From a virus, in IMG/VR virus record IMGVR_UViG_3300045988_001419, positions 1-5,912 of that record: a stretch of DNA of 5,912 bases. The stretch is one strand, 5' to 3'. The position numbers and the translations under genes are program-made. The first letter of the stretch is position 1. Each line of letters begins with the position of its first letter. Shown in pieces: positions 1,079 through 1,645 of the stretch. The notes below the pieces were generated by a model. The model saw only the letters and a list, made by a program, of their open reading frames with translations. It did not search any database and was not told the DNA's origin.

Positions 1079-1107
1079 ATTCTATCATATTTTTCAAAAA
1101 AAGTCAA
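1079..1107 (-). promoter_or_regulatory. Sigma70-type promoter P1: TTGACT (1107..1102), 17-nt spacer, extended -10 TGaTAGAAT (1087..1079), with an A/T-rich UP-like region upstream (1108-1140)
   Basis: I read this from the reverse complement as cTTGACTttttttgaaaaataTGaTAGAATataatcac. The -35 is 5/6, the -10 is 5/6 with a TG extension, and the spacer is 17 nt. It sits at the edge of the noncoding region, about 30 nt upstream of the ORF60 start. Confidence 0.6.
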
Positions 1108-1166
1108 GTTTTTTTTGAAATTTTAATTGATATATTAGTAGCTGGTTTTGCTCCTTTGTTTTGAAT

Positions 1167-1180
1167 GGCGCTTTAGCGCC
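1167..1180. repeat. Palindrome GGCGCT-TT-AGCGCC
   Basis: The arms are 1167-1172 and 1175-1180. The same arm sequences recur at 1463-1468 and 1487-1492, and an AGCGCT palindrome lies at 1227-1232. Confidence 0.7.
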
Positions 1181-1240
1181 TTGCCGTATGGAGCGCAGCG
1201 GAATTCGGCTAAATCCATTCCTTTTTAGCGCTGTGCGCGT

Positions 1241-1361
1241 TTTCAACACTTTCAACACTTTCAACACTTTCAACAGGTTTTCAACATAAAGTTGCACAAT
1301 GATTTTCGTTATTTTGACGAACTTTCAACAATTCAACAAGTTTTCAACAAAACTTTCAACA
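1241..1361 (+). repeat. Iteron array: nine same-orientation copies of (C)TTTCAACA
   Basis: TTTCAACA starts at 1241, 1250, 1259, 1268 (four perfect 9-bp tandem units), 1279, 1323, 1342 and 1354. ATTCAACA starts at 1331 and a degenerate TTTCAACT at 1408. All copies are in one orientation and in noncoding sequence. Confidence 0.9.
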
Positions 1362-1414
1362 CTGTTTTTTGCTTTTTATTTACGCTCTAACGTTAAATTT
1401 TAGTACTTTTCAAC

Positions 1415-1423
1415 TTTTCCACA
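1415..1423 (+). promoter_or_regulatory. DnaA-box-like 9-mer TTTTCCACA (fits the relaxed consensus TTWTNCACA)
   Basis: This is a direct match to the consensus. Three iterons extended by one T (TTTTCAACA at 1240, 1278 and 1341) differ from that consensus at one position. A single 9-mer match could arise by chance. Confidence 0.3.
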
Positions 1424-1427
1424 TTGC

Positions 1428-1442
1428 CTACTACTACTACTA
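1428..1442. repeat. (CTA)5 trinucleotide microsatellite
   Basis: ctactactactacta is read directly from the sequence. Confidence 0.9.
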
Positions 1443-1462
1443 CAACAAGTTATATATTATAC

Positions 1463-1492
1463 GGCGCTTGTGAGCTTGCGAACAATAGCGCC
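1463..1492. repeat. Inverted repeat GGCGCT ... AGCGCC with an 18-nt loop
   Basis: The arms are 1463-1468 and 1487-1492, the same 6-mers as the 1167-1180 palindrome. Confidence 0.6.
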
Positions 1493-1498
1493 TAAGAG

Positions 1499-1542
1499 CC
1501 GCGCGTGCGCGCGTGCGCGCTTCGCGCGCGTGCGCACGCGCG
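1499..1542. repeat. 44-nt GC-rich alternating purine-pyrimidine tract forming a long imperfect hairpin (candidate ssDNA structural signal, Z-DNA-prone)
   Basis: The sequence is ccgcgcgtgcgcgcgtgcgcgc tt cgcgcgcgtgcgcacgcgcg. There are two 20-nt perfectly alternating R-Y runs (1501-1520 and 1523-1542). Pairing 1502-1520 with 1524-1542 around a 3-nt loop gives 19 positions: 15 Watson-Crick pairs, 3 G-T pairs and 1 mismatch. GCGCGTGCGC recurs at 1501, 1509 and 1526. Confidence 0.85.
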
Positions 1543-1560
1543 ATAAAGTATAGCTATTTG

Positions 1561-1578
1561 ATAGACTGAATAGACTGA
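1561..1578. repeat. Tandem direct repeat ATAGACTGA x2, preceded by the palindrome ATAGCTAT (1550-1557)
   Basis: Read directly: atagactga atagactga. Confidence 0.85.
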
Positions 1579-1601
1579 TACATGGAGCTTTTAAATGATA
1601 A

Positions 1602-1635
1602 TAGCCCAGTACCTTACTTGATAGGTACTGGGCTA
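1602..1635 (-). terminator. Strong hairpin 10 nt downstream of the VP4 stop. It is a candidate transcription terminator and/or ssDNA origin structure.
   Basis: A 12-bp perfect stem TAGCCCAGTACC / GGTACTGGGCTA (1602-1613 and 1624-1635) gains one extra T-A pair at 1614/1623, leaving an 8-nt loop. On the minus strand it is followed by the A/T-rich TTATCATTTAAAAG, which is not a clean U-tract. Confidence 0.5.
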
Positions 1636-1645
1636 GGTGACACCG

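Follow-up and report, generated by a model that had tools for sequence, protein, structure and literature searches.

What does an array of short, same-orientation repeats do in the genome of a small rolling-circle phage, and which protein reads it? This question was raised by an intergenic locus of the window, i.e., the whole stretch of 5,912 nucleotides that was analysed, which represents a circular gut gokushovirus genome carrying all of its genes on the minus strand. An earlier reading of the letters alone (hereafter the sequence-only reading) had described about ten iterons in one orientation, and the array was borne out with 11 boxes, degenerate copies included. The exact motif TTTCAACA occurred eight times, on the plus strand only (1241, 1250, 1259, 1268, 1279, 1323, 1342, and 1354), against an expectation of 0.37, and none of 200 shuffled controls reached this count. 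The relaxed motif TTCAACA added one further site at 1332, and the degenerate boxes TTTTCAACT and TTTTCCACA completed the set; similarly, TKTCMACA gave 10 matches in the window versus 0.94 expected. Tandem Repeats Finder recovered the perfect 9-bp tandem units (1241-1275, period 9, 3.9 copies, 100% identity). The match to the DnaA-box consensus TTWTNCACA reported at 1415-1423 was present and was the sole one in the window, but is not significant on its own because 113 of the 200 shuffles contained at least one; the weight of TTTTCCACA as a DnaA box comes from its context. While the array was real, its span of 1240-1423 left out the (CTA)5 tract at 1428-1442 and the AT-rich DNA up to 1462.

The open reading frame at 1094-1297, whose LKVLKVLK stretch had been held to be an artefact of the repeats, was indeed found to be non-coding. 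It was rejected as a gene on account of 1-nt indels in its 3' half among close relatives and the lack of a Shine-Dalgarno sequence, and was further ruled out by its disruption in genomes with an inverted module; its apparent conservation in 42 of 62 genomes arises only because the underlying DNA is conserved. An Rfam scan of the window (E <= 1) returned no matches in the intergenic region.

Table 1. Coordinates in the window of the parts of the module (1240-1462) and of two neighbouring elements
Feature	Position	Strand	Sequence and remarks
Distal box cluster B	1240..1286	+	five head-to-tail boxes: TTTTCAACA / CTTTCAACA x3 / TTTTCAACA
B-A spacer	1287..1322	+	length kept (44-45 nt box-to-box), sequence variable except TTGCACAA
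Box cluster A	1323..1361	+	four boxes TTTCAACA, ATTCAACA, TTTTCAACA, CTTTCAACA; spacing 8, 11, 12
Second spacer	1362..1406	+	length kept (53-54 nt box-to-box), sequence variable
Proximal tandem box pair	1407..1423	+	TTTTCAACT 1407-1415, TTTTCCACA 1415-1423; latter fits TTWTNCACA
4-nt spacer	1424..1427	+	TTGC
Triplet tract	1428..1442	+	(CTA)5 = (TAG)5 on gene strand
AT-rich stretch	1443..1462	+	conserved CAACAAG, then TTATATATTATAC (80% A+T); candidate duplex-unwinding element
Promoter P1	1107->1079	-	TTGACT-17-TGnTAGAAT; serves downstream genes; context, outside module
Candidate Rep nick origin	1602..1644	-	GGTGTCACC + 13-bp hairpin, loop ATCAAGTA; context, outside module

As summarized in Table 1, the boxes belong to a larger non-coding module of approximately 220 bp, which was present in 67 gokushovirus genomes; the array is hence not unique to this contig, as it would be if it were a recent accident. 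Cluster B, with start-to-start spacings of 9, 9, 9, and 11, reads TGTTGAAAA-CC-(TGTTGAAAG)3-TGTTGAAAA on the gene strand and was kept in all 67 genomes, and the B-A spacer contains a small palindrome, TTCGTTATTTTGACGAA. Across genomes, the box-to-box spacing followed the profile 8, 54, 12, 11, 8, 44/45, 11, 9, 9. The proximal pair was conserved as TGTKGAAA + GTTGAAWA in the 67 genomes, the proximal box of relatives being TGTGGAAAA, AGTGGAAAA, or TGTTGAAAT. The spacer that follows was 4 nt long in nearly all genomes (0-3 nt in the inverted clade), and in relatives its gene strand was rich in G (GGAG, AGGT, GGGC, or GCAA). The triplet tract TAG-NNG-TAG-TAG-TAG was fixed in more than 60 of the 67 genomes with constant length; the three box-adjacent triplets were always TAG, and TCG, with a central C, was a frequent variant. 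The AT-rich stretch was short, 13-20 nt in the window and 12-30 nt in relatives; its reading as a dif/XerCD-like site was weighed by eye and found unsupported.

The DNA of the module was 65-84% identical to that of the window in genomes whose VP1 and VP4 were only 40-47% and 37-47% identical, respectively. Within the module, conservation was higher in the box columns (79-96%) than in the spacers (73%). The 613 aligned sites conformed to T-G-T-[T 85% / G 15%]-G-A-[A 94% / T 6%]-A-N, and the variation fell mainly at the two positions that separate TGTTGAAAA from the DnaA box TGTGGATAA. The latter occupies one box position in 14 genomes, while a second position holds TGTGGAAAA in 29; in cluster A, one position is occupied by the perfect DnaA box TTATCCACA in 14 relatives. 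As a counterpoint to DnaA, the dominant box TTTTCAACA breaks the relaxed E. coli consensus at the C of CACA.

Nor is the module tied to one place or one orientation. It alone was precisely inverted in two close relatives (L011 and L110), was both relocated and inverted in a clade of nine genomes, and can lie between VP2 and VP4 in a clade other than that of the window. No such array was found in five gokushoviruses sampled at 38-45% VP1 and 28-33% VP4 identity, and the module is accessory, being missing from relatives as distant as some of its carriers. A conserved protein of the phage, or frequent recombination, might also account for the high conservation of the module. Among GenBank microvirus records, 44 of 3212 carried a module detectable by blastn; it was never annotated as a feature in those 44, five of which show only an overlapping "hypothetical protein". 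A blastn search of the module against 72,556 plasmids gave no match. In addition, an IMG/VR scan for two copies of TGTGGATAA separated by 0-4 nt matched at least 120 contigs, with no microvirus among those listed, and therefore no microvirus module with canonical boxes was found among the matches listed. Folding of either module strand was no better than that of shuffled sequences (z +0.24 and +0.28), the boxes remaining unpaired. The inversions and relocations, this absence of a fold, and the retention of gap lengths while their sequences change suggest that the module acts on double-stranded DNA.

The order of the parts at the proximal end was compared with the basal unwinding system (BUS) of bacterial origins, which is searched for as a box carrying no more than 2 mismatches, followed after 0-16 nt by three or more NAN triplets with GAT favoured on the box side, and which has a GC cluster of about 4 bp between box and trios (PMC8287927). 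TTTTCCACA has 1 mismatch to TTATCCACA (1-2 in relatives), whereas the second tandem box TTTTCAACT, for which up to 4 mismatches are allowed, has 3; the spacer of 4 nt lies within the permitted 0-16 bp; and five triplets follow, where at least three are needed, with the consensus 3'-GAT-5' on the strand whose 5' end points away from the boxes. The triplets can accordingly be read as putative DnaA-trios on the opposite strand and as a DnaD recognition pattern on the plus strand, and the central C of the frequent TCG variant is the trio substitution best tolerated in B. subtilis. This combination of box pair, 4-nt G-rich spacer, triplets, and AT-rich DNA was fixed in more than 60 of the 67 genomes. 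With Firmicute oriC BUS elements, the phage module thus has in common the order of the parts, the 4-nt spacer, and at least three perfect 3'-GAT-5' triplets next to the boxes; the AT-rich DNA beyond is its candidate unwinding element. Specifically, the BUS of B. subtilis incC has the same polarity, with boxes followed by 5'-CTACTATTACTTCTACTA-3', and that of C. difficile oriC2 has the trio sequence 5'-CACCTACTACTATTACTACTATGA-3', both close to the phage (CTA)n. Meanwhile, several features set the phage module apart from the Firmicute elements: its boxes, about ten, are mostly TTTTCAACA and all point one way, its unwinding-element candidate (20 nt at 80% A+T) falls short of the 27-mer of B. subtilis in length, and it lies not beside dnaA but on a 5.9-kb rolling-circle single-stranded DNA phage. 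A BUS otherwise marks a chromosomal origin, usually a dnaA-linked one; since the element is on a microvirus genome, it could work like oriC, but is not one.

A counterpart of the array was found on bacterial chromosomes. Two rumen Ruminococcus genome bins contained a region of approximately 650 bp with 21-23 boxes of the phage type, and TTTCCACA and TTTCAACA interchange at matching positions between the two bins. Cluster B agreed with the Ruminococcus locus L134 in 47 of 49 bases with identical 11-9-9-9 spacing, and cluster A in 25 of 28 bases with an identical 11+8 arrangement. The chromosomal cluster lies upstream of a small gene (87 aa), from which position the genes diverge; other Oscillospirales had only 3-7 boxes upstream of homologues of this gene, which confines the dense cluster to a single lineage. 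No dnaA gene was located within 5-7 kb of the cluster, and a local tblastn search with B. subtilis DnaA (an approximate query) gave no match in the loci examined; the cluster may thus be another type of DnaA-box cluster or the site of another protein. The one candidate from a relaxed BUS scan of the locus was weak, T-rich, and overlapped a -10 box, for which it was set aside; GC skew, computed over 8 kb, gave no guidance. It is motif sharing alone that points to a host of this kind: the two 5.8-kb microvirus contigs found in genome bins were grouped with Prevotella and Bacteroides, an unreliable assignment that in any case does not favour Ruminococcus, and an exact VP1 lookup returned the source metagenome contig only, with no host information.

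Variant boxes of this type have been met in other DnaA contexts. TT(T/A)TCAACA has been proposed as the DnaA-box consensus of mollicutes (PMC3322544), "ttttcaaca" was used as a non-perfect DnaA-box motif for locating the predicted Lawsonia origin (PMC2671203), and a conserved array of boxes in T5-like phages combines TTATCCACA with TTATCAACA (bioRxiv 10.1101/866236). The injection-stop region of these phages is likewise conserved and non-coding, with consensus boxes and C-to-A variants in a fixed arrangement; unlike the module, however, it belongs to a double-stranded DNA phage, its boxes are paired in inverted repeats, no trio or unwinding element has been described, and its proposed role in stopping injection is not related to replication. 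The arrays of E. coli oriC consist of same-orientation low-affinity sites about 11 bp apart. With the DnaA-oligomerization regions of that origin (PMC10325909), the phage module shares head-to-tail non-consensus boxes that face the unwinding element, at a spacing of 9-12 bp; its array, however, runs in a single direction and is not divided into two halves facing each other. Neither IHF nor Fis sites were identified in the module.

On these grounds, recruitment or titration of a host initiator was favoured among the roles that the sequence-only reading had offered: the boxes vary toward canonical DnaA boxes, a trio-like tract and an AT-rich stretch adjoin them, and the same variants appear in the Ruminococcus cluster. 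We infer DnaA binding and subsequent unwinding at the module, and consider it somewhat probable that the array supplies the DnaA boxes of a portable, chromosome-origin-like module of about 220 bp that recruits host DnaA. DnaA-ATP of the host would fill the phased box arrays on the double-stranded replicative form, extend from the proximal pair onto the trios, and open the AT-rich DNA as at a Firmicute oriC, whereby the opened DNA would give access to the helicase-loading machinery of the host. The replicative form might thereby be amplified or maintained independently of Rep (theta-type), or Rep might be assisted, and the arrays would soak up host DnaA as a side effect. We know of no need for DnaA in a rolling-circle phage.

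The closest alternative, and an unlikely one, accepts the same box evidence with DnaA acting as ligand only: the array would titrate DnaA or read its level, blocking or timing host initiation in the manner of E. coli datA, the B. subtilis DnaA-box clusters, and multicopy inc fragments, or DnaA would serve as a transcription factor on phage promoters, with no origin fired on the phage. With ten to eleven sites per copy, a multicopy replicative form would make an effective sink; the Ruminococcus counterpart, which has no link to dnaA, could be a titration cluster in its own right; and T5-like phages have conserved arrays of DnaA boxes that are not believed to serve as origins. The dense clusters of datA and of the B. 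subtilis DnaA-box clusters/inc also lie away from dnaA, like the Ruminococcus locus and the phage arrays. Those titration loci, however, are without an adjacent trio and unwinding element; a cluster by the titration standard (at least 4-5 boxes) is present in the phage, but with trio-like triplets and an AT-rich stretch attached. Titration or sensing leaves unexplained why an invariant triplet tract, a 4-nt spacer, and AT-rich DNA occupy the exact places of a BUS, and why every box points toward that end. Binding by a different host factor, for instance a response regulator of the Spo0A type or a protein of the nucleoid or of segregation, with control of P1 or partition of the replicative form as the purpose, seems rather unlikely. 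TGTTGAA is one base off the 0A box TGTCGAA, P1 was found 134 nt from the array (within the 130-280 nt given by the sequence-only reading), the Ruminococcus cluster lies upstream of a small gene, and two direct-repeat clusters on either side of a spacer recall the design of plasmid centromeres, R1 parC among them. Position 4, nevertheless, was C in 0 of 613 aligned sites, so the consensus 0A box never occurs and the Spo0A idea fails on sequence; the box changes lead instead to consensus DnaA boxes, and no gene for a centromere-binding partner is present in the phage. An upstream regulatory array for P1, which the sequence-only reading had also proposed, is disfavoured in that the module inverts (L011 and L110) or moves to a site between VP2 and VP4 while P1 stays in place.

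Phage-encoded ligands fare less well. HUH-Rep replicons typically pair iterons with a hairpin, and a conserved hairpin with a sequence-specific loop, the candidate Rep nick origin, lies 1 nt past the VP4 stop, 180-240 nt from the array in the window, and about 30 nt from the AT-rich module end in two clades. The boxes might accordingly be iterons for Rep (VP4) or another phage protein, like those of circoviruses, geminiviruses, and iteron plasmids, positioning Rep to nick there, which we regard as quite improbable. Origins of CRESS-DNA viruses and rolling-circle plasmids likewise combine direct repeats and a conserved hairpin in one intergenic region of an HUH-Rep replicon, but the phage repeats, which are dispensable in relatives, showed none of the co-variation with Rep that the sequence-only reading had suggested looking for (the box core was unchanged across VP4 identities of 37-95%), and their distance, side, and orientation relative to the hairpin differ among clades. 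The hairpin, with four different compensated stems and a conserved loop, was also found in gokushoviruses without the module, and it evolves separately from the module. As for another phage protein, only VP1, VP2, and VP4 were encoded in 62 of 62 genomes and VP3 and VP5 in 54, with no other genes widely shared. A phiX174-origin reading of CAACAAGTTATAT was weighed by eye and found unsupported. A single-strand function, either as a complementary-strand origin (A-site primosome or primase starts) or as a packaging signal of the virion strand, is very improbable. Microviruses need a minus-strand origin, and to our knowledge none is known for gokushoviruses; Firmicute DnaG prefers CTA/TTA, CTA being a triplet at which the primases of Staphylococcus and Geobacillus are known to initiate, and the CTA tract could provide primase start sites. 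However, neither strand folds above shuffled sequences, the boxes lie outside stems, and in the several lineages with an inverted module the virion would carry the complementary sequence. The DnaA-box hairpin ("A-site") of the ABC primosome was not recovered either, the unpaired boxes all having one orientation. Finally, the window array has one 9-bp unit more than its nearest relatives, so slippage does occur; as an explanation of the whole array, a non-functional slippage product is of negligible probability, being effectively refuted by the 67 genomes, the deep protein divergence, and the fixed spacing and triplet tract.

Microviruses are textbook rolling-circle phages, whose replication is generally attributed to an HUH Rep of their own together with host elongation factors, and our literature search turned up no paper that connects DnaA with Microviridae or gokushoviruses. 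Gut microvirus hosts are otherwise largely unassigned, and the TTTTCAACA/TTTTCCACA variant with its spacing, common to Ruminococcus chromosomes, may offer a clue to the host from sequence. The module is small and has clear limits, and its natural inversions and relocations already act as experiments. More tentatively, the mammalian-gut gokushovirus clade might carry a second, host-type replicator, a portable oriC copy that works in either orientation, is fired by DnaA, and allows theta-mode, plasmid-like, Rep-independent persistence in Oscillospiraceae, in which case the box variant would also reveal the host; this we hold to be possible but doubtful. Should the portable module indeed recruit host DnaA, a large group of abundant gut microviruses would tap the initiation machinery of their hosts, a route would be open for interference with host replication via DnaA titration, and integrase-less gut gokushoviruses would have a mechanism of persistence, through either a plasmid-like replicative form or coupling to the host cell cycle.

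The window was found to be the complete circular genome of a mammalian-gut gokushovirus, with a 55-nt terminal redundancy that gives a unit length of 5,857 nt, and is approximately 85% identical to Gokushovirus WZ-2015a and the human gut gokushovirus SH-CHD5. All of its genes lie on the minus strand. Among the 62 complete genomes bearing the ~220-bp box-containing element studied here (the module, window 1240-1462), VP1, VP2 and VP4 (Rep) were the only genes present in 62/62, and VP3 and VP5 were detected in 54. The M15 (D-Ala-D-Ala carboxypeptidase-type) peptidase gene occurs in 40 of the 62 and has its own near-consensus promoter close upstream (TTGACG-17-TATAAT, 848->820), where a hairpin (832-858) scores as terminator-like on the plus strand only, antisense to the genes. 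A 75-aa protein family (M..KTWNVRDQ..YKEID..LRK..AK..EIW..KSFAN.IE.EL.RRE) is encoded in 51 of the 62 (L001-L017 and others; e.g., L002 at ~2525-2750), and no member was detectable in the window.

Features of the window and of the Ruminococcus counterpart regions
Feature	Position	Strand	Remark
VP1	5243-3564	minus	
VP2	3525-2662	minus	
Rep (VP4)	2665-1646	minus	
77-aa ORF	1097-864	minus	
M15 peptidase	806-405	minus	
VP5 and VP3		minus	
Single large non-coding region	1098-1645		VP4 stop to P1; contains the box array
Promoter P1	1107->1079	minus	TTGACT-17-TGnTAGAAT
Ruminococcus box regions, contigs L133 and L134	480-1130; 2660-3280		chromosomal, non-coding; bins RUG11850 and RUG10751, listed in that order

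The motif TTTCAACA occurs eight times in the window, on the plus strand only (1241-1361), against 0.37 copies expected by chance, and eight copies were reached in 0 of 200 shuffles; the array of same-orientation repeats proposed in the sequence-only reading is thus real. A TTCAACA match at 1332 represents a ninth copy, and with TTTTCAACT (1407) and TTTTCCACA (1415) the total comes to 11 boxes in a single orientation, the tandem part comprising 3.9 perfect 9-nt units. The LKVLKVLK ORF, suspected in that reading to be an artefact, indeed proved to be a by-product of the repeats, with 1-nt indels in its 3' half among close relatives. Distal cluster B (1240-1286) of the window has one additional 9-bp unit (1249-1257) compared with the nearest relatives (L001, L002 and others), which gives it five boxes, as in the Ruminococcus locus.

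Eleven complete GenBank relatives were fetched, of which ten carry the array after VP4 as in the window and the eleventh carries it inverted, and an IMG/VR scan with a 17-mer added ~55 further microvirus genomes. Alignment of 67 genomes yielded a consensus of ~210 nt that has ten box positions and on the gene strand reads TATATAAC-TTGTTG-TAG-NNG-TAG-TAG-TAG-(4 nt)-TGTKGAAA-AGTTGAAAA-(~45 nt)-TGTTGAAAG-TTT-TGTTGAAAA-CT-TGTTGAAT-TGTTGAAAG-(~35 nt)-TGTKGAAAA-CC-TGTTGAAAG-TGTTGAAAG-TGTTGAAAA. The module DNA was 65-84% identical to that of the window even in phages whose VP1 and VP4 were only 40-47% and 37-47% identical, respectively, a conservation judged from these alignments to be far above expectation for unconstrained non-coding DNA at this protein divergence. 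Column conservation was 79-96% in the boxes versus 73% in the spacers, and the box spacing profile (8, 54, 12, 11, 8, 44/45, 11, 9, 9) was preserved across long gaps of varying sequence.

Over 613 aligned sites, the boxes followed the pattern T-G-T-[T 85% / G 15%]-G-A-[A 94% / T 6%]-[A 87% / T 13%]-N. Most of the variation falls at the two positions where TGTTGAAAA departs from TGTGGATAA, the canonical DnaA box (which reads TTATCCACA on the other strand); position 8 is variable too (13% T). The perfect box TGTGGATAA fills one position in 14 genomes, and at another position TGTGGAAAA and TGTTGAAAA are found 29 and 28 times. As for the DnaA-box site noted earlier, the window does contain one perfect TTWTNCACA match, and this match alone is not significant. 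The likeness to the Spo0A box (TGTCGAA) was not borne out, since position 4 was never C in the 613 sites. Related variants are described in bacteria and phages: TT(T/A)TCAACA was proposed as a mollicute DnaA-box consensus (PMC3322544), the predicted Lawsonia origin was located with 'ttttcaaca' as a non-perfect DnaA-box motif (PMC2671203), and T5-like phages have a conserved array mixing TTATCCACA and TTATCAACA (bioRxiv 10.1101/866236).

Directly beyond the proximal box pair, the plus strand of the window (1407-1462) reads TTTTCAAC-TTTTCCACA-TTGC-CTACTACTACTACTA-CAACAAG-TTATATATTATAC, a feature absent from the sequence-only reading. By its layout, this stretch appears to match the published architecture of the basal unwinding system (BUS) of bacterial oriC, in which a tandem DnaA-box pair and a ~4 bp spacer lead into three or more DnaA-trios (3'-GAT-5', with A in the centre), with AT-rich DNA beyond them (PMC8287927; PMC6669920). 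Its triplet strand is almost identical to those of the known origins of B. subtilis, 5'-CTACTATTACTTCTACTA-3', which has the boxes on its 5' side and doubles as the DnaD recognition element (TnnT repeats) (PMC10201434), and C. difficile, 5'-CACCTACTACTATTACTACTATGA-3' (PMC7561715). TAG-NNG-TAG-TAG-TAG with its 4-nt G-rich spacer was fixed in more than 60 of the 67 phage genomes, and the three box-nearest triplets were invariant. In its polarity of box relative to AT-rich side, the module also agrees with E. coli oriC, where R1 stands in this relation to the unwinding element. The common triplet variant, TCG, has a central C, the substitution that B. subtilis tolerates best (PMC10721633).

A scan of genome collections with the 28-nt core of cluster B matched two small contigs of microviruses and, from rumen Ruminococcus genome bins, two chromosomal ones. 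The microvirus contigs L135 and L136 are complete, 5.8-kb and module-bearing, and their binning with Prevotella and Bacteroides is probably an artefact, not host evidence. In each Ruminococcus contig, a non-coding region of ~650 bp holds 21-23 TGTTGAAAA/TGTGGAAAA boxes, which face both ways and form two clusters. Where one bin has TTTCCACA, the matching position of the other bin has TTTCAACA, indicating that both variants are interchangeable in the bacterium too. Cluster B of the window agrees with this region at 47/49 bases, including the 11-9-9-9 spacing, and cluster A (1323-1361) at 25/28 bases with the 11+8 spacing; the comparison shows that a Ruminococcus-type bacterium uses the site variant and spacing of the phage module. 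This sharing, the sole clue to the host, points indirectly to a Ruminococcus-type bacterium, and a Firmicute host is consistent with the strong Shine-Dalgarno sites and the extended -10 promoter. The region is flanked by diverging genes, with an 87-aa ORF, DUF6512 and a SpoU methylase on one side. Because dnaA was not found within 5-7 kb and the corresponding place holds only 3-7 boxes in related Oscillospirales, the region is not assignable as the chromosomal origin; it may represent a titration cluster, or else an origin that lies apart from dnaA.

Several other elements share the non-coding region. One nucleotide past the VP4 stop, the gene strand (1602-1644) carries GGTGTCACC and a hairpin, in which an invariant GGTGTCA precedes a stem that differs between clades, with four versions, all fully compensated, and a conserved TATCAAG(T/A)A loop. 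This candidate Rep nick origin is also present in module-less gokushoviruses (L266). In one genome (L263) the element is carried by the non-gene strand, and the gene strand accordingly reads CATACTTGATAT, matching the phiX174 nick-site core, ACTTG|ATAT; in the window, ACTTGAT reads on the strand antisense to the genes, which raises the question of the packaged strand. Between the hairpin and the module lies a 43-nt alternating purine-pyrimidine (CG/CA)n near-perfect palindrome (1500-1542; 20-nt arms, 90% complementary), which could form a cruciform or Z-DNA; it occurs in most relatives and is missing from the L013, L094 and L023 clades. A perfect tandem of two ATAGACTGA units (1561-1578) between hairpin and palindrome is kept in the closest relatives (L001, L002, L011). 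Between the array and P1, a conserved GC-rich block (1125-1240) with the hairpins GCGC-ACA-GCGC and GGCGC-TAAA-GCGCC is non-coding, given its 1-nt indels, folds only mildly better than shuffled sequence as a single strand (z -1.57), and keeps the gene orientation in genomes with a flipped module. Divergent clades have a different GC-rich block there, and the block may serve as a minus-strand origin or act at the 3' end of a transcript.

In MG945447 (L011) and the IMG/VR genome L110, whose VP4 is 87-91% identical to that of the window, the inverted segment coincides exactly with the module, its limits being the AT-rich end and the last box, with the hairpin, GC palindrome, conserved downstream region and P1 left in place. 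A clade of nine genomes (VP4 ~37% identical) has the module, likewise inverted, between VP2 and VP4. As single strands, both strands of the module fold no better than shuffled sequence (z +0.24 and +0.28). Only 44 of 3,212 GenBank records with a VP1 homologue have a blastn-detectable copy, and neither such boxes nor the triplet tract was found in five gokushoviruses sampled at 38-45% VP1 identity. Combined, these observations indicate an autonomous, accessory element that would work on double-stranded DNA in either orientation.

The same natural experiments bear on the alternatives. They argue against a directional promoter element, including the upstream regulatory array for P1 suggested earlier, and against an essential Rep origin. 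Rep-binding iterons, likewise suggested earlier, rank third among the rivals: the box sequence does not follow Rep divergence, and the module is inverted, relocated or absent in some gokushoviruses. A single-stranded-DNA role, such as a virion-DNA signal, comes fourth, the folding being no better than random. Slippage junk ranks last; the array is not unique to this contig, and the sole tract length difference, a sixth TAG without the spacer in the inverted clade, is unlike the scatter that slippage should give. The leading rival is DnaA titration or sensing with no origin firing, followed by binding of another host regulator. The variation of the boxes toward TGTGGATAA and the adjoining BUS-like layout favour recruitment or titration of the host initiator, as the sequence-only reading had proposed among its candidate roles; DnaA as the binding protein is proposed here on sequence logic.

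DnaA-box clusters and the BUS are already known, as are DnaA boxes on plasmids and phage T5. In the searchable literature, no BUS-like module that is complete, conserved and mobile was found described for a rolling-circle phage with single-stranded DNA, and none of the 44 GenBank records carrying the module annotates it as a feature. We lean, by a little over even chances, toward an origin-like element at which host DnaA drives BUS-type opening on the replicative form. DnaA-ATP would bind the phased arrays and spread from the proximal pair onto the trios, opening the AT-rich DNA, which would then admit the DnaD/DnaB/DnaI helicase-loading pathway. In two clades, ~30 nt separate the AT-rich end from the candidate nick hairpin, a distance that still allows a Rep-assisting role. 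For these phages, the outcome would be Rep-independent amplification of the replicative form or its plasmid-like maintenance, or else support for Rep, with DnaA titration as a built-in side effect.
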